A stretch of DNA of 64,000 nucleotides from Thermoprotei archaeon (GCA_049976445.1 JBMFIF010000003.1:3629-67628), one strand, 5' to 3'. Positions 5,585 to 18,095 are shown, counted from the first letter of the stretch. Program-made: numbers and translations. Notes: generated from the letters alone by a model not told the origin.

Positions 5585-7171
5585 ATGAGCTTCGAAATAC
5601 TGGATAAAAGCCTTTGTGGGAGAATTGGTCTACTTAAGACTAGGCACGGAAACATTAAAACACCTACGCTCTTGCCAGTTTTAAACCCTGTAAAGCAAGA
5701 GCTTTCTGCACAAGATATTGCTAAAATAGGTTTTGATGCGGTAATAACTAACGCTTATCTTCTTTGGAGAAATATGAAGGGAAAGCCACGAGATGTTCAT
5801 GATCATTTAAACTTTAATGGGCCAATAATGACGGATTCTGGAGCTTATCAGATTTTACGTTATGGTGCTGTTGAAGTTAAGCCTGAAGAAATTGTGGAAT
5901 ACGAAAAATTAATCAATAGTGATATTGCGGTAATACTTGATGTGCCAACCGGTCCAGATGATGATTGGAATAAGGCTAAAGAAAGTGTGGAAATAACGCT
6001 ACATAGAGCAATTGAAAGTAATAAAATAAGGGATCATGAAAGACTTTGGGTTGGTCCTATCCAAGGTGGTAAATATCTTGATTTAGTTAGGTTATCAGCT
6101 AAATCAATGTATCAACAGGGTTTTGATATATATGCTGTAGGAAGTCCAACTGGTTTAATGGAAGGTTACAAATTTAGTACGGTATTGAAAATGGTGATTA
6201 CTGCGAAAAGTATTATTGGTTCTGGGAATCCATTACACTTATTTGGCGCGGGCCATCCTATGTTCTTTCCGTTTATGGTTGCGGTTGGGGTAGATTTATT
6301 TGATTCTGCCGCGTACGCGCTTTATGCACAAGATGGTAGATATATAACTTCATCAGGTACTTTTAGGATAAACGATTTAAAAGAATTACCATGTAATTGT
6401 CCTGTATGCTCAAAAGCCTCTGCAGATGATGTAAGAAATATGTCTCAAGAAGAAAGAAAGCGTTTTTTGATGATTCATAATTTGTATGTTAGTTTATCTG
6501 AAGTAAAAAGAGTACGCCAACACATAACTGAAGGTACACTCTGGGAACTTTGTGAAGAAAGAAGTCGTGCGCATCCATCCTTGTTTAACGCTATGAAAGT
6601 TCTTGTGAAGTTTCATAAATATCTTGAACGATGTGACCCAATCACTAAACCTGTTATTCATGGTCTCTTTTTCTATAGCAATGAGACTGCATTAAGGCCT
6701 CAGACTTATAGACATGTAATGAGAATTATATCAAATTATTCACCAGAATTTGTTAAACTTATTATATTACTTCCTCCAGTAATAAATAGGCCATACATCA
6801 GATCTTCTGTTATAAGGAATATTATACAACTAATCAATAATACAAAATATGCAAATTCATCATGTATAGCTATTGTTGGCGATCCGTTTATTTTTATACC
6901 AATAGAACTTTCTGAAATATATCCTTTATCACAATATGAAGGCATGGCATGCTCTAAAGCTCTTTCAAAAATATTCATAGATAATTTTCCTAATCTCAAA
7001 TTTCTTGATGGACTAGAAGTAGCAATATCAATATCTGACAAGCACAATAATGATCTTCTTAATAAAATCAATGAATATTTAAGAGAAAAAGGAGTAAAAG
7101 TTATCGAAATTAGTTTGAAAAAAGGAGATTCTATGATAAAAATTCTTAAAAATGTGCTTAGTTTGTTATAA
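5585..7171 (+). CDS. tgtA: archaeosine tRNA-guanine transglycosylase (TGT catalytic domain + C-terminal domains, no obvious PUA)
   Basis: TGT-family N-terminal half and a CNCPVCS zinc site. 528 aa, shorter than PUA-containing euryarchaeal enzymes. Confidence 0.8.
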   Translation: MSFEILDKSLCGRIGLLKTRHGNIKTPTLLPVLNPVKQELSAQDIAKIGFDAVITNAYLLWRNMKGKPRDVHDHLNFNGPIMTDSGAYQILRYGAVEVKPEEIVEYEKLINSDIAVILDVPTGPDDDWNKAKESVEITLHRAIESNKIRDHERLWVGPIQGGKYLDLVRLSAKSMYQQGFDIYAVGSPTGLMEGYKFSTVLKMVITAKSIIGSGNPLHLFGAGHPMFFPFMVAVGVDLFDSAAYALYAQDGRYITSSGTFRINDLKELPCNCPVCSKASADDVRNMSQEERKRFLMIHNLYVSLSEVKRVRQHITEGTLWELCEERSRAHPSLFNAMKVLVKFHKYLERCDPITKPVIHGLFFYSNETALRPQTYRHVMRIISNYSPEFVKLIILLPPVINRPYIRSSVIRNIIQLINNTKYANSSCIAIVGDPFIFIPIELSEIYPLSQYEGMACSKALSKIFIDNFPNLKFLDGLEVAISISDKHNNDLLNKINEYLREKGVKVIEISLKKGDSMIKILKNVLSLL

Positions 7172-10989: not shown

Positions 10990-11064
10990 TGGGCCGGGCC
11001 GGATTTGAACCGGCGACCACTGCCTCGTAAGGGCAGCATCCTAACCAGTCTAGACGACCGGCCC
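10990..11064 (-). tRNA. tRNA-Val (anticodon TAC)
   Basis: Manual fold. Acceptor GGGCCGG/CCGGCCC. Anticodon stem CTGCC/GGCAG with loop CTTACGA. T-arm GCCGG-TTCAAAT-CCGGC. Discriminator A. Confidence 0.85.
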
Positions 11065-11143: not shown

Positions 11144-11701
11144 TTATGGATCGTCTATTGAGATTATTGTTGGTTGGCTTTCGGATTCTATTTTTTTCAT
11201 TAAATCCTCTATAAATTTAATAATCATAGAGTTATCTTGAGTTTCTAAAACTGAATCGCATTCTGGGCATTTGAAGCTATGATCGTATGCTTCATCGAAT
11301 GTGTATCTTTTTTCAGGATGGTTTGGACATGCAAAAAACATGTTTTGTTTCTCGTATTCTAATCTGGTTTTAAGTTTTTCGAGAACTATTTTTTTTCGTC
11401 TGAGTACTACGTTGGCTAAATTTTCGTAATCTAGGCTCCAATAATATGTAAACCAACCTGTGTCTGGTTCTTTTTCTCTTCGATATTTTACGATTCCTAC
11501 GTCAAAGAGCTCGTAAAGTACTTTTCTTATTACACTCAGTTTAAGTCCAGTTCTTTTTATTAGCCACTCTTCAGTAGTTTCTCTTCTCTCTGAGAGTGCA
11601 ATAACTATGGGTTCTGCGACTGGCCCTACAAATGTTCTAGCCAGCTTTGATATGTATGATCTGAATTTCGCTTGATTTTCTGATCTTGACATTTTGCTCA
11701 T
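11144..11701 (-). CDS. tfe: transcription factor E alpha (TFIIE-alpha homolog: winged helix + zinc ribbon)
   Basis: N-terminal winged helix and a CPNHPEKRYTFDEAYDHSFKCPEC zinc ribbon. Confidence 0.8.
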   Translation of the reverse strand: MSKMSRSENQAKFRSYISKLARTFVGPVAEPIVIALSERRETTEEWLIKRTGLKLSVIRKVLYELFDVGIVKYRREKEPDTGWFTYYWSLDYENLANVVLRRKKIVLEKLKTRLEYEKQNMFFACPNHPEKRYTFDEAYDHSFKCPECDSVLETQDNSMIIKFIEDLMKKIESESQPTIISIDDP

Positions 11702-11763
11702 TTATTATTTAACCTTAAGATATTTAACTTTTAATATAGCATATTAGCGGGATTCAAGAGGTA

Positions 11764-12300
11764 TTATTCATTAGGTTTTATATTAATTACTTTTTTCCCA
11801 CGTTCTGATGGTATGATTTGTATTTTAGCGTTGGTGAAAGTTTTATAAAATTCTTTACCTTCAAATAAGTGATCGAGAAATACTGCAAGAGCGGCTACTT
11901 CGCTATGAGGTTGATTTGTTACTGAGACATTATATGTTGCCATCTCATAAATTTCTTTAGGCACTTTTGATGCTCCAATTATTATTAATTTATCTTTATT
12001 GCTAGTTTTTATCTTATCTATTATAGATGGTAATGGAAGGCCATACATCGTAAGATGTATTACTTCATTTCCGTTTTCAACCCATTTTTTAATGAAACTT
12101 CTCCATGAAATGCCCATTTTTAGTATAAATGGACCGCCGAATCTATTTATTACGTCATGAATCTTCCTTTCTATTTTTTCATCTACAGTATCGAATATGA
12201 TACCATCTGCACCAAATGCCCTAGCTACTAATGCACAATGGGTACTCACTCTTTTGTCTCGTTCAGGTCTATGTCCTAGTCTGAATACAAAGATTTTCAT
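11764..12300 (-). CDS. tRNA (cytidine56-2'-O)-methyltransferase aTrm56 (SPOUT)
   Basis: VFRLGHRPERDKRVSTHCALVARAFGADGIIF matches the aTrm56 N-terminal signature. 178 aa. Confidence 0.75.
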   Translation of the reverse strand: MKIFVFRLGHRPERDKRVSTHCALVARAFGADGIIFDTVDEKIERKIHDVINRFGGPFILKMGISWRSFIKKWVENGNEVIHLTMYGLPLPSIIDKIKTSNKDKLIIIGASKVPKEIYEMATYNVSVTNQPHSEVAALAVFLDHLFEGKEFYKTFTNAKIQIIPSERGKKVINIKPNE

Positions 12301-12824
12301 TTTGTCTCGTCAGTCTTTTTAGGCATTTTAAGTTTTGCAACATCACCTAATGTTAAATCTATTGATATAGAATTTTGGCTTAAATTTGTGACCGAGGGGA
12401 TTTTCTCAATAAGAGGGATGCCCAATATTTTCTCTATTTTCCTTGCTAACTGGATACTAGGAATGATGGACCCCGCCTCAATCTTTTTTATTACAGAAAC
12501 TTTTTCGCCTAACTGACTAGCTAAAAAGTCTTGGGTCCATCCTAATCTTTCTCTAGCAGATTTTATTAGAGATGGATATTCATCAACAACTTTTATATCC
12601 TCATTAAAAATATCTTTTTCGAATTTTCTTTGAACAGTCCTACTACTTGGTTTTGGCTGTATTTTAGATTGTGCTGAGAGCGTTTGAATTTGTGAAACTT
12701 GTCTAGTCTTTATTGGCGTACCGTATCGTGAACATTCATTGCAGACGGTTAATTTTGCCCCTCCTATTAAGATAGTAACAGGTTGACCTTTAATAGGTTT
12801 ACCGCAGATTTCGCATGTAAGCAA
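12297..12824 (-). CDS. mbf1: archaeal multiprotein bridging factor 1 (zinc ribbon + HTH-XRE)
   Basis: N-terminal CEICG...CNEC zinc ribbon and a C-terminal HTH (LGWTQDFLASQLGEKVSVIKKIE). Confidence 0.75.
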   Translation of the reverse strand: MLTCEICGKPIKGQPVTILIGGAKLTVCNECSRYGTPIKTRQVSQIQTLSAQSKIQPKPSSRTVQRKFEKDIFNEDIKVVDEYPSLIKSARERLGWTQDFLASQLGEKVSVIKKIEAGSIIPSIQLARKIEKILGIPLIEKIPSVTNLSQNSISIDLTLGDVAKLKMPKKTDETK

Positions 12825-12881
12825 AGCTTACACCACTATATAAGTATTTTAAGGTGAAATATATCTTAATCTTCTTGTAAG

Positions 12882-13355
12882 GTGGTGATTCTTCTGAACG
12901 TGATGTTATCACAAATTAGGAGGATAGCAGACTACCAGTTTGGCTTAGGGGTTGGTAAAATATTGTTTCCTGATAATGTTAACATTGAACTTTCAAAACA
13001 AGGAAGACCAAGAAGGATTTATTTAAACAATAAGCTGATAGCCACTATACGTGCACGTGATGGATATATTGCACTCACATTAGATGGTGCAAGAATACTA
13101 TTACAAAGTAATTTGGTAGAAAAAAATATTGTAATCATATCTGAGGATGCAGTACCTTTTGTAAAAAATGGGCGTAATGTATTCGTTAAATTTATTGAGC
13201 ATGCCCCTAAAGAACTAAAAGCAGGTGAAGAAGTTATTATAGTTAACAAAAGGAAAGAATTAATAGCTGTTGGAAGAGCTATTTTAAATGGTGAAGAGAT
13301 GTTAAGTTTAAAGTCTGGATTAGCAATTAAAGTTAGGAGGGGTGTTGAAGATTGA
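12882..13355 (+). CDS. stand-alone PUA-domain protein (arcTGT C-terminal-like)
   Basis: 157 aa with a PUA-like C-terminal half (VIIVNKRKELIAVGRAILNGEEM). Start codon is uncertain. Confidence 0.45.
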   Translation: MVILLNVMLSQIRRIADYQFGLGVGKILFPDNVNIELSKQGRPRRIYLNNKLIATIRARDGYIALTLDGARILLQSNLVEKNIVIISEDAVPFVKNGRNVFVKFIEHAPKELKAGEEVIIVNKRKELIAVGRAILNGEEMLSLKSGLAIKVRRGVED

Positions 13356-13729
13356 GCAGGATTATGAACAGAAACATGATGCGAACTTTACAACGTATGG
13401 GCATTAGCGTGGAACCACTCAATGGTGTCAGAGAAGTCCATTTAATATTTGATGATAAGACTCTGAAACTTATTAATCCATCAGTAATGGTAACAAAAGC
13501 TGGTGGACAAGATATATATCAGATAGTCGCTGAAAAGATAGTAGAAGAAAGACAGGCTCTCCAAACACCGTTATCAAAACCTGAAGAACAACCTCTAACT
13601 ATTCCAGAAGAGGATGTGGTGTTAGTTGCAGAGCAAACAGGTGTTTCAAAGGAAAAAGCAAAACAAGCACTAATGCAAACCAATGGAGATATAGCGGCTG
13701 CAATACTTATGCTAAAGTCAAAGAGGTAA
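13352..13729 (+). CDS. nac: nascent polypeptide-associated complex protein (NAC alpha with C-terminal UBA)
   Basis: NAC domain, then a UBA-like tail EDVVLVAEQTGVSKEKAKQALMQTNGDIAAAILML. Confidence 0.8.
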   Translation: MSRIMNRNMMRTLQRMGISVEPLNGVREVHLIFDDKTLKLINPSVMVTKAGGQDIYQIVAEKIVEERQALQTPLSKPEEQPLTIPEEDVVLVAEQTGVSKEKAKQALMQTNGDIAAAILMLKSKR

Positions 13730-13734
13730 ATCAT

Positions 13735-14262
13735 TTGTTAACAGTACGTACTAATGGTTTAATAGTACTAATTCAAGGAATAAAAGTTCGTTCACCAATT
13801 AATATTAACTCACTTAAAAAAATTCTTGAAAAAGCTAATAGTAATAATTACGTTATACAGTTAATTGATGCAGATATTGTCGCTTCTCTTCATCATTTAA
13901 TCGCGGCAATAATTAGAACAGAACGTTCTTTTCATTCAAAAAGGAATATTTCGCACAAAAAGCACGTAGAATTGCTCTTGCGATTATGTGGTACACGTCA
14001 GATTTCTGATGCAATAAAAATTGCTGGTATAAAACCAGATTCTGTTAATGTTATACTCATATGTTATGGAAAAACAGAATGTCCACACGTTAAAACGATC
14101 CTTAATATGATTGATGGTGATTTAGAAAATAATATTCTTTACCTTAATAAAGAAAAGAGAAATAAGTTAATCAAGATTTATAATTTACCGTCTAGCATTT
14201 CTGATGAAGATTTAATAAAGTATGTACTTTTTAAAACATCGTTAATAGAGATAGAATCGTGA
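13735..14262 (+). CDS. hypothetical protein (possibly KEOPS subunit Cgi121; weak)
   Basis: 175-aa ORF in an information-processing neighbourhood. No motif recognised with confidence. Confidence 0.25.
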   Translation: MLTVRTNGLIVLIQGIKVRSPININSLKKILEKANSNNYVIQLIDADIVASLHHLIAAIIRTERSFHSKRNISHKKHVELLLRLCGTRQISDAIKIAGIKPDSVNVILICYGKTECPHVKTILNMIDGDLENNILYLNKEKRNKLIKIYNLPSSISDEDLIKYVLFKTSLIEIES

Positions 14263-14265
14263 TAA

Positions 14266-14371
14266 TGGGCCGGGCCGGACTTGAACCGGCGACCACCACC
14301 GCGTCAGGGTGGCATCCTACCAATCTAGACGACCGTTCTGTGCCATTAGGCAGCCCAGGGTTACCCGACCC
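14266..14371 (-). tRNA. tRNA-Val (anticodon GAC) carrying a ~32-nt insertion in the 5' acceptor-stem region (non-canonical intron candidate, or a disrupted gene)
   Basis: The 3' two-thirds fold as a normal tRNA: D-arm TCGTCTAGATTGGTAGGAT, anticodon stem CCACC/GGTGG with loop CTGACGC, T-arm GCCGG-TTCAAGT-CCGGC, 3' acceptor strand CCGGCCC-A. The matching 5' strand GGGTCGG lies 32 nt further upstream, separated by CGGGTAACCCTGGGCTGCCTAATGGCACAGAA. The exact junction is ambiguous because of a CGG repeat. Confidence 0.55.
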
Positions 14372-14497
14372 ATAAATATTTTAAAAAGACTGCAATATAA
14401 CCTATTCGCTTATTTTTTAATGATAAAAATAATATTTCACGCACAATAATAAATTTATTTAAATATCACTCTAACTAATATAAAATGAGGTGAAACA

Positions 14498-17006: not shown

Positions 17007-18095
17007 TCACTTTATATTAATTTTTATCCAGCAATGCCCACGTAGGTTTCCCAAAGCAATGTTTATCTTTACCTTGGTATGTACTATTTTTTCTGATTTT
17101 AATGTAATATTGGCTTTACCTATATATTTAATAATTTCTAAATCGTTACCTGTGACTTTACCTACATTTGTTAAATCAACCCATGTTTCTAAAGGTTCAA
17201 CATTAAATTTAGATCCAATTGTATAAAAGTTTATGAAATAAGGTTCATTAATTTTTCCATGATCCTGTACATCGACTATTACAACCGGGTTTATTAGTAT
17301 TGAAGCTATTTCTGGTGATATGACTTTTTCCCATGATTCTCTACTAACTGTCTCTGCAAATTTTGTCATTTTTTCTATATTACCTGATTCAAAGAAACCA
17401 CTTGTTGCGTCCCAAATAGCTTGAGATCTCCAGTATTCATCATCAATCTCATTAAGAACCGTTATTATATCATTTATTAGAAAGCCCCATTTAGCAAGGA
17501 GTCTTACAAAATCAGACATTATTTGAAATCTTTGAGATTTATCTTGAATGAAATTTATATCATTCATGATCAAATTAATAAGTTGGTCTCTATATTCGCT
17601 AAGTTCGCTATTTAAAATATTACCTAACATGATTAGAAGTTCTGATCTATTTAAAGGATCGTTAATATTTTCTATGCTATCAAATATTTCATTAATAGTT
17701 TCTTTAAAAACACCATATTCTAGAAATATTCCAGCGATCTGAAGTATTCTAATAATTGCTGACAATCGGTTATACAAATCTTTTAACTCTTTTGCATATG
17801 AAAAAGCTTTATTAATGATCTCTGATGCCTTTTCTATATAATAACCTTCGGCATATATTTCAGCTAATTTTGCAAGCAACCATACATAATCCTCACCTTT
17901 TTCCATTGTACTAAGCTCTTTATCAGCAAGTTGTAATATTGTTTGCGCCTCATTTAATTTATTAATATTCATGAATATTTTTGATATTTCTAATTGGTAC
18001 AACATTTTCCAGTAAAAATTATTTTCAGTTTTTAACATAGATTGTAATCGGTGTATTTCCTTCTCAGGGTTAATTAATTTAATGAGATATTTCAT
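17007..18095 (-). CDS. hypothetical alpha-helical repeat protein
   Basis: 362-aa ORF, tightly spaced between flanking genes. N-terminal two-thirds are helical and TPR-like. No family recognised. Confidence 0.4.
   Translation of the reverse strand: MKYLIKLINPEKEIHRLQSMLKTENNFYWKMLYQLEISKIFMNINKLNEAQTILQLADKELSTMEKGEDYVWLLAKLAEIYAEGYYIEKASEIINKAFSYAKELKDLYNRLSAIIRILQIAGIFLEYGVFKETINEIFDSIENINDPLNRSELLIMLGNILNSELSEYRDQLINLIMNDINFIQDKSQRFQIMSDFVRLLAKWGFLINDIITVLNEIDDEYWRSQAIWDATSGFFESGNIEKMTKFAETVSRESWEKVISPEIASILINPVVIVDVQDHGKINEPYFINFYTIGSKFNVEPLETWVDLTNVGKVTGNDLEIIKYIGKANITLKSEKIVHTKVKINIALGNLRGHCWIKINIK

Follow-up and report, generated by a model that had tools for sequence, protein, structure and literature searches.

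Non-canonical introns of the bulge-helix-bulge (BHB) type are known at many tRNA positions, and position 3/4 in Thermoproteales is described as an 'extreme case' (PMC4090602, PMC4033280). The strict motif, in which a central helix (H) with its two bulges is flanked by an outer (h) and an inner (h') helix and which is written hBHBh', is required by alpha4 and alpha2 endonucleases, and relaxed motifs are substrates of (alpha-beta)2 and epsilon2 endonucleases (PMC3239211). In this regard, tRNAscan-SE 2.0 extends its candidates by 60 nucleotides (nt) and iterates, catching introns near the tRNA ends and ordered removal, and it foresees BHBs near those ends that depend on flanking sequence (PMC8450103). 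Here we describe an essential tRNA-Val(GAC) gene on the minus strand of a 64,000-nt stretch of DNA from a Thermoprotei archaeon (GCA_049976445.1, JBMFIF010000003.1:3629-67628; 'the window' hereafter means this whole stretch) that very probably bears a genuine, spliced non-canonical intron, whatever its exact architecture. The arrangement that we favour, drawn from sequence comparison and energy models and in our judgement about evenly balanced between being right and wrong, is a functional tRNA-Val(GAC) with a 17-nt intron at position 4/5 and a 5' leader that would be removed by RNase P.

Both ARAGORN and Rfam (RF00005) call this gene at 14266-14339 (-) only. The 5' acceptor strand of the called gene, AGAACGG, pairs at 4/7 positions, and its Rfam score is 42.1 bits, versus 58.3-67.2 bits for the other four tRNAs of the window. 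From position 8 onwards the tRNA is normal: the 3' exon comprises CGG, U8 and C9, the D arm, the anticodon arm with GAC, the variable loop and the T arm, and it ends with the 3' acceptor strand CCGGCCC, common to tRNA-Val(GAC) and to the tRNA-Val(TAC) at 10990-11064, followed by the discriminator A at 14266; CCA is not encoded. An earlier description made from the sequence alone (the sequence-only reading) had placed the missing acceptor strand, GGGTCGG, upstream of a single 32-nt insertion. The heptamer is indeed present at 14371-14365 (-), its pairing with CCGGCCC is borne out by six Watson-Crick pairs and U4.G69, and after it the 32 nt are found as described (CGGGTAACCCTGGGCTGCCTAATGGCACAGAA, 14367-14336 on the minus strand), leading into CGGTCGTCTAG... 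and on to the discriminator. Two of its statements were too generous: the last ~70 nt, called a perfect tRNA, lack tRNA positions 1-4, and the identity to tRNA-Val(TAC), called almost complete, is 88% (66/75 columns). The pattern GGGYYGG occurs 16 times against 4.7 expected in 128 kb counted on both strands, 7/16 within tRNA genes, and one would turn up by chance within the 60 upstream nt, in the right orientation, with a probability of roughly 0.004. Given its rarity outside tRNA genes, its presence upstream of tRNA-Val(GAC) is unlikely to be a chance event.

RNA positions are counted along the minus strand from G1 = 14371, so that position i corresponds to coordinate 14372 - i. Read on that strand, the locus runs ...TTATATTGCAGTCTTTTTAAAATATTTAT / GGGTCGGGTAACCCT / GGGC / TGCCTAATGGCACAGAA / CGGTCGTCTAG...CCGGCCCGGCCCA / TTATC..., and the tetramer GGGC (i16-19) lies inside what the sequence-only reading had taken for a 32-nt intron; the 17-nt intron comprises i20-36. 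The parts of the gene in our best model are as follows.

14357-14371, minus strand: putative 15-nt 5' leader, GGGUCGGGUAACCCU, drawn from pairing in six variants and energy folds
14353-14356, minus strand: candidate 5' exon GGGC, tRNA positions 1-4, invariant in six variants
14336-14352, minus strand: candidate 17-nt BHB intron, UGCCUAAUGGCACAGAA, at tRNA position 4/5, with sites between C14353 and U14352 and between A14336 and C14335
14266-14335, minus strand: 3' exon, tRNA positions 5-73, from the ARAGORN and Rfam calls and the cloverleaf drawing

Excision of 14352-14336 yields GGGCCGG(-UC), which matches CCGGCCC with 7/7 Watson-Crick pairs and is the same as the acceptor strand of tRNA-Val(TAC). 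The D, anticodon and T arms of this product are normal, and a canonical cloverleaf with a 7-base-pair (bp) acceptor stem is thereby restored. The two junctions fall in a BHB motif. Its outer helix is formed by C13-G38, C12-G39 and A11-U40 and reaches 8 contiguous pairs in the scored relatives with G at position 10; its central helix comprises C14-G34, U15-A33, G16-C32 and the mismatch G17.A31; its inner helix consists of G21-C30, C22-G29 and the 23:28 pair (C23-G28 in the window). The 5' bulge is G18, C19 and U/A20, cut after C19, and the 3' bulge is A35, A/G36 and C37, cut after position 36. Scored in all six variants, the motif gives H 3/4, h 3 (8 in relatives) and h' 3 (2 in relatives). When leader and intron were shuffled, with the splice sites fixed by the requirement on the exons, a motif this good arose in 4e-4 of the trials.

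The geometry used here was calibrated by scoring both possible BHB geometries on 21 canonical introns predicted by ARAGORN in fetched Thermoproteota loci. Only one geometry fits them, with the bulges 3' of each strand of the central helix and the cut after the second bulge nucleotide; H is 4/4 in 16 of these introns and 3/4 in the other 5, the outer helix measures at least 5 bp in 21/21, and the inner helix is at most 1 bp in 12. The candidate at 4/5 shows the features of a relaxed BHB, namely cuts after the second nucleotide of ~3-nt bulges, four helix positions between these bulges and one or more flanking helices. The mirror-image 'type A' geometry, with bulges 5' of the helix strands, was dropped, since the 21 real introns fit only the other; it had given misleading matches, including one that would cut off the leader. 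An unrestricted scan of the precursor returned 42 relaxed BHB-like motifs in 141 nt of G+C-rich RNA. The presence of a motif is therefore uninformative by itself, and what counts is its coincidence with a junction that restores the tRNA. An alternative junction, GGGCUG joined to G, has no BHB. A split or permuted gene was rejected, as both exons are collinear on the same strand, 17 nt apart. A self-splicing group I or II intron, which would measure hundreds of nucleotides and hold a ribozyme core, was rejected too, the insert being 17-32 nt long and matching no Rfam intron family even at E <= 1. Concerning the sequence-only reading, the kind of intron that it proposed, a non-canonical one in the acceptor stem, is supported, but its boundaries are not, the 17-nt intron being the better fit; the ambiguity of the splice position that it attributed to a CGG repeat vanishes with the shorter intron. 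The small hairpins that it saw in the insert can be drawn, but the same positions join more informative pairings.

The host is an uncultured, low-G+C Thermoprotei archaeon of hot-spring metagenomes. The surrounding genes are of archaeal type (Cgi121, NAC, TFE-alpha, aTrm56 and a TGT-C2/PUA protein), G+C is ~33%, and a metagenome-assembled genome labelled 'Thermoprotei archaeon' encodes a protein with 100% identity to the adjacent M1 peptidase. Homologues of the M1 peptidase and of Cgi121 led to syntenic hot-spring metagenome contigs, giving six variants of the locus (the window, L005/L006, L132, L134, L133, and L001 with its identical copies); a pattern scan of metagenomes added one contig, identical to L001, and among more distant relatives reached through the M1 peptidase synteny is lost at <=58% identity. 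In one relative, GCA_038881895.1 (L131, 10001-10960), whose Cgi121 is 78% identical, the region downstream of Cgi121 is rearranged, with neither tRNA-Val(GAC) nor M1 peptidase, and an F420-ligase-family gene follows instead.

The interruption is kept in all related variants. Identity to the window is 349/350 for the 70-nt body over the five relatives, 71-88% for the intron, 81-93% for the leader, 78-91% for the upstream region and ~55% downstream. The contrast between the body and the downstream flank points to strong purifying selection and not to a pseudogene. The variable positions of leader and intron (9, 10, 20, 23, 25, 28 and 36; n=7) lie in bulges, loops, helix ends or the 23:28 pair, or improve pairs. 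In five variants this covarying pair reads C-G, C.A, U-A, U-A and U.G; from L001 it has been lost. None of the 12 core paired positions of leader and intron varies, versus 7/20 of the others (hypergeometric p ~0.02, hand-calculated, six variants only). Since the MAFFT alignment misplaces an extra G in the leader G-run of L134 (contig ERZ4120748 G03_000000001487, GGGTCGGGGCGACCC), pairs were tabulated from hand-anchored columns; this extra G is harmless for the leader model. Beyond this lineage, a pattern scan of a genome collection listed at least ~119 other archaeal tRNA-Val(GAC) genes among its matches, all intronless. Read by eye, their 5' acceptor strand is always the Watson-Crick complement of the 3' strand, and those with CCGGCCC have GGGCCGG, U4.G69 not being seen among them.

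The leader seems to have several roles: G1-G7 would act as a decoy acceptor strand, A11-C13 contribute to the outer helix and C14-U15 to the central helix of the BHB. In minimum-energy folds of the precursor at 37 C, from models in which proteins and modifications are not included, G1-G7 are paired with the 3' acceptor strand in 6/6 variants, and i10-40 are extruded as an arm with a 3-nt 3' bulge and the central helix in 5/6, the window being the exception. The D, anticodon and T arms are normal or near-normal in L001, L133 and L132; the D and anticodon arms are distorted in L005, and L134 is without a D arm. Forcing the split true acceptor in the precursor costs 5.7-11 kcal/mol at 37 C. With the leader copy occupying the 3' strand, GGGC and CGG are left free for the splicing arm, and in these models the GGGUCGG:3'-strand pairing and the BHB are one joint structure. 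After in-silico splicing the leader can form a hairpin of its own (G1-C14, G2-C13, G3-C12, U4-A11 and C5-G10), 5 bp long in all variants except the window, where it has 4 bp, and the pair U4-A11 would account for the U at position 4. For the once-spliced RNA at 75 C, the minimum combines this hairpin with the true GGGCCGG acceptor in 5/6 variants. These predicted folds suggest a splicing-dependent refolding that hands a leader-bearing pre-tRNA to RNase P. In line with this notion, the leader could work as a splicing-dependent RNA switch, in which the decoy holds the 3' end and later folds away, licensing RNase P.

Two TATA-like elements lie upstream of the gene.

14393-14409, minus strand: probable promoter, with the TATA-like TTATATTG at 14400-14393 and the purine-rich GCGAATAGG upstream of it at 14409-14401
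14378-14385, minus strand: second TATA-like box, TTTAAAAT, at -29..-22 from G 14356 (G16)

The first 8-mer stands at -29..-22 from G 14371, and the block CGAATARGTTATATT is the best-conserved intergenic one in all six variants, reading CGAATARG-TTATATT, with the length of the 21-22 nt spacer kept. From the spacing, transcription probably starts at or beside G 14371. The boxes of tRNA-Ala, tRNA-Arg(CCG) and tRNA-Arg(CCT), three of the four other tRNAs of the window, stand at the same -29..-22 distance from the mature 5' end, which hints at near-leaderless tRNA transcription in this organism. The second box is without a purine-rich element upstream, varies in sequence among the relatives and is altered in spacing in L134; it is probably just the A+T-rich spacer of the upstream promoter. 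A start at 14356 was rejected as the main route, since neither the central nor the outer helix of the BHB could then form. Each candidate 5' end has a U in front of it (14372 before G 14371, 14357 before G 14356); both of these U residues are able to pair with the discriminator A73, and the two spliced forms are each drawn by ARAGORN with an 8-bp stem.

The distance from the promoter, a measure used earlier to expose disrupted tRNA genes (PMC3218864), is one of the points that weigh against the 17-nt intron with a leader removed by RNase P. That from the box to G 14371 equals the distance between box and mature 5' end in the other tRNAs, which is what GGGUCGG as the real 5' end would predict, and a start at G 14371 makes tRNA-Val(GAC) the sole long-leader gene among the five tRNAs of the window. 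The mismatch G17.A31 is present in all six variants, so that the central helix stays at 3/4 and the strict 3-4-3 hBHBh' motif is not formed, which implies a broad-specificity endonuclease (PMC3239211). The conservation rests on six closely related variants, and covariation comes down to one pair. The window itself has A10, so that the longer outer helix and the hairpin of the leader are both less stable there; after splicing, its preference for the true acceptor is only about neutral at 75 C (-15.0 vs -15.4 kcal/mol), and at 37 C the energy model prefers the decoy pairing in all variants. Finally, neither RNase P nor the splicing endonuclease was located in the sequence at hand, namely the 38 open reading frames (ORFs) of the window compared with Pfam and 123 kb of fetched loci, about half of them from this lineage; the same material held no hidden disrupted tRNAs, RNase P RNA, endonuclease proteins or RNase P proteins. 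The distance to G 14371 would suit a nested arrangement, which we regard as unlikely on the whole, in which the 17 nt leave first and then an enclosing 15-mer (GUAACCCUGGGCCGG, 14364-14353 + 14335-14333), giving a leaderless tRNA that has no need of RNase P; ordered removal of neighbouring introns is known in Thermoproteales (PMC8450103). Here 14371-14365 would be the true 5' exon and 14364-14357 intron, the acceptor would be GGGUCGG:CCGGCCC with U4.G69, and the mature tRNA would start GGGUCGGUC / GGGUCGGUCGUC, the latter expected from a single 32-nt intron as well. After in-silico removal of the 17 nt, a second BHB can be drawn across the ligation junction (G2-C37, G3-C19, U4.G18 and C5-G17, with bulges G6 G7 G8, cut after G7, and G38 G39 U40, cut after G39). 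It is a formal strict 3-4-3 motif at 7/8 in 5/6 variants (H 4/4, h of at most 3, h' of 2); every variant keeps a partner for position 9 in G16 (U.G or C-G) and for position 10 in U15 (A-U or G.U), and the product folds as a tRNA. However, the 4/4 helix carries no independent weight, since the self-complementary GGYC is present in both acceptor-like copies and is enough to produce it. The flanking helices fall short of those in all 21 real introns, with h at 1 bp if transcription starts at G1 (versus >=5) and h' at two weak pairs, and in L134 the extra G makes the first bulge 4 nt. Moreover, the conformer needed exceeds the minimum by 6.9-15.3 kcal/mol in all variants, as it leaves the 3' acceptor strand unpaired, the U4.G69 of the product was not seen by eye in the ~119 listed orthologues, and a perfect GGGCCGG would be discarded as intron. 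Read as a tRNA 'twintron', with the inner excision creating the central helix of the outer intron and a leaderless product not needing RNase P, the nested arrangement is improbable.

The single 32-nt intron of the sequence-only reading, removed in one step from any of four equivalent placements (4/5 to 7/8), is the least probable explanation considered and only barely credible. Its GGGUCGG does pair with the 3' strand, taking out the 32 nt restores a cloverleaf, and a relaxed motif (H 3/4, h 3) can be drawn at 7/8, of a class (hBH or HBh') that heterotetrameric endonucleases accept (PMC3239211). At 7/8, however, an internal G.A or G.G mismatch interrupts the central helix, only 0-2 bp are available for the inner helix, and the outer one could form only with nucleotides that precede the likely start of transcription; scores are lower still for the other three placements, and at 4/5 the 5' splice site falls within the predicted G1-G7 helix, where there is no bulge. 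The product would carry U4.G69, and the endonuclease would first cut at the much better BHB that lies within the insert. The BHB that the sequence-only reading had proposed to look for is thus usable at none of the four 32-nt placements, but is found at the junctions of the 17-nt intron. That the locus is instead a pseudogene, or the called gene taken at face value with its mismatched AGAACGG acceptor, would agree with the 42 bits and the 4/7 acceptor pairs returned by standard tools; we consider it very unlikely. Against the degradation that the sequence-only reading had raised as its alternative stand the body at 349/350 in five relatives versus ~55% in the flanks, the insert kept with structure-preserving changes and the conserved promoter block, and no second tRNA-Val(GAC) was seen in the window or the syntenic loci. 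The gene as called by ARAGORN and Rfam was rejected in its own right, given its 4/7 pairs and a position 4 that varies between A and G opposite G69, never pairing.

With the 17-nt intron at 4/5 and the leader as our preferred arrangement, the following route can be proposed. In Thermoprotei one would expect an RtcB-type ligase and, for splicing, an endonuclease of (alpha-beta)2 or epsilon2 type that accepts relaxed motifs. To judge from its spacing, the conserved TTATATTG box would direct transcription from about G 14371. In the precursor, the leader GGGUCGG would pair with CCGGCCC, as seen in the sequence and in the energy models; leader ACC would pair with the 3'-exon start GGU, and leader CU with intron CAG, giving an extra BHB arm that stands between acceptor helix and D arm. 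Cleavage by the archaeal tRNA splicing endonuclease would then take place between C14353 and U14352 and between A14336 and C14335, after the second nucleotide of each 3-nt bulge as in the calibrated geometry, and the ligase would join GGGC to CGG. The resulting spliced intermediate that still bears the leader, GGGUCGGGUAACCCUGGGCCGGUC, is expected in this route and in the nested arrangement alike. The contiguous GGGCCGG, with seven G-C pairs, may next displace the decoy, with its six Watson-Crick pairs and G.U, as the models at 75 C predict for 5/6 variants, and the freed leader would fold on itself (GGGUC/GACCC). Cleavage by RNase P between U14357 and G14356 would release a 74-nt tRNA starting GGGCCGGUC / GGGCCGGUCGUC, to which CCA would be added.

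Several features of the neighbourhood deserve mention in their own right. Genes for tRNA and translation are clustered around the two tRNA-Val genes (11144-14262 and 5585-7171), among them TFE-alpha, aTrm56, a helix-turn-helix protein, a stand-alone TGT-C2+PUA protein, NAC and Cgi121, and the order of the cluster is conserved in L001, L132 and L133. The ORF at 5585-7171 matches, by position, the PF01702 TGT gene of L133, which suggests a split archaeosine tRNA-guanine transglycosylase. Only 3 nt separate the end of the Cgi121 ORF and the 3' terminus of the convergent tRNA gene (14262-14266), a gap that obliges the tRNA trailer and terminator to overlap the end of Cgi121. On the strand opposite to the tRNA, a sub-threshold Rfam match to HPnc0260, a bacterial antisense RNA family, covers 14156-14298 (+); with 44.4 bits against a gathering score of 59 and E = 0.1, it is almost certainly due to chance. 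Beside the peptidase, 17007-18095 (-) encodes a conserved 362-amino-acid protein also present in L001, L004, L132 and L133; no Pfam match at E <= 1e-5 was obtained for it or for a run of seven ORFs in 53.9-59.6 kb.

Together, our findings describe an intron at 4/5 in an unsampled lineage, of a kind already known but rare, and the decoy-acceptor leader, or else the nested arrangement, is a possible new feature. The locus adds an intron within the first five tRNA nucleotides from a sparsely sampled, thermoacidophilic lineage of Thermoprotei, and its splicing motif cannot be built without the 5' leader. If true, a partner-switching leader would offer a simple means, encoded in the RNA itself, of making splicing precede maturation of the 5' end. 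On the practical side, general tRNA finders score this tRNA-Val(GAC) as crippled, so that an annotator could miss a good gene or pick the wrong 5' exon.

Among described systems, the closest are the introns at 3/4 in Thermoproteales (Sugahara et al. 2008, after the summary in PMC4090602). They share with this locus a short intron in the 5' acceptor strand, splice sites in 3-nt bulges around a 4-bp helix, a Thermoprotei host and a BHB that recruits nucleotides upstream of tRNA position 1. In contrast, the intron here is at 4/5, which is not among the positions given in that summary, its host belongs to a different, uncultured and low-G+C lineage, and the leader brings along a second version of the acceptor strand, 7 nt long, that can hold the 3' strand; no description of such a decoy-acceptor leader was found in a literature search whose reach did not extend to the primary intron catalogues. 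Introns removed in order offer a second likeness, as another 3-4-3 motif can be drawn across the junction once the 17 nt are out; here, however, the second 'intron' would enclose the first, is energetically disfavoured and has almost no flanking helices, and is more probably leader. With the split and permuted tRNAs of Nanoarchaeum equitans, Caldivirga and Thermofilum (PMC3218864, PMC4033280) the locus shares the supply of one side of the BHB by sequence from outside the tRNA, whereas its parts are in cis, in normal order and on one transcript, and in the best model the leader would not be removed by the endonuclease. As to the motif itself, there is a close likeness with the canonical 37/38 introns of tRNA-Phe in other Thermoproteota (L020, L063, L089 and L090), which differ in lying in the anticodon loop with the anticodon stem as outer helix. 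In these, a central helix CUGR:NCAG is likewise followed by a purine-rich bulge. In L020 and L090, both with H = 3, the mismatch falls at the same helix position as G17.A31, and CUGA:NCAG with the bulge AUA, cut after U, closely resembles CUGG:ACAG with the bulge AAC, cut after the second A, at the tRNA-Val(GAC) locus described here.

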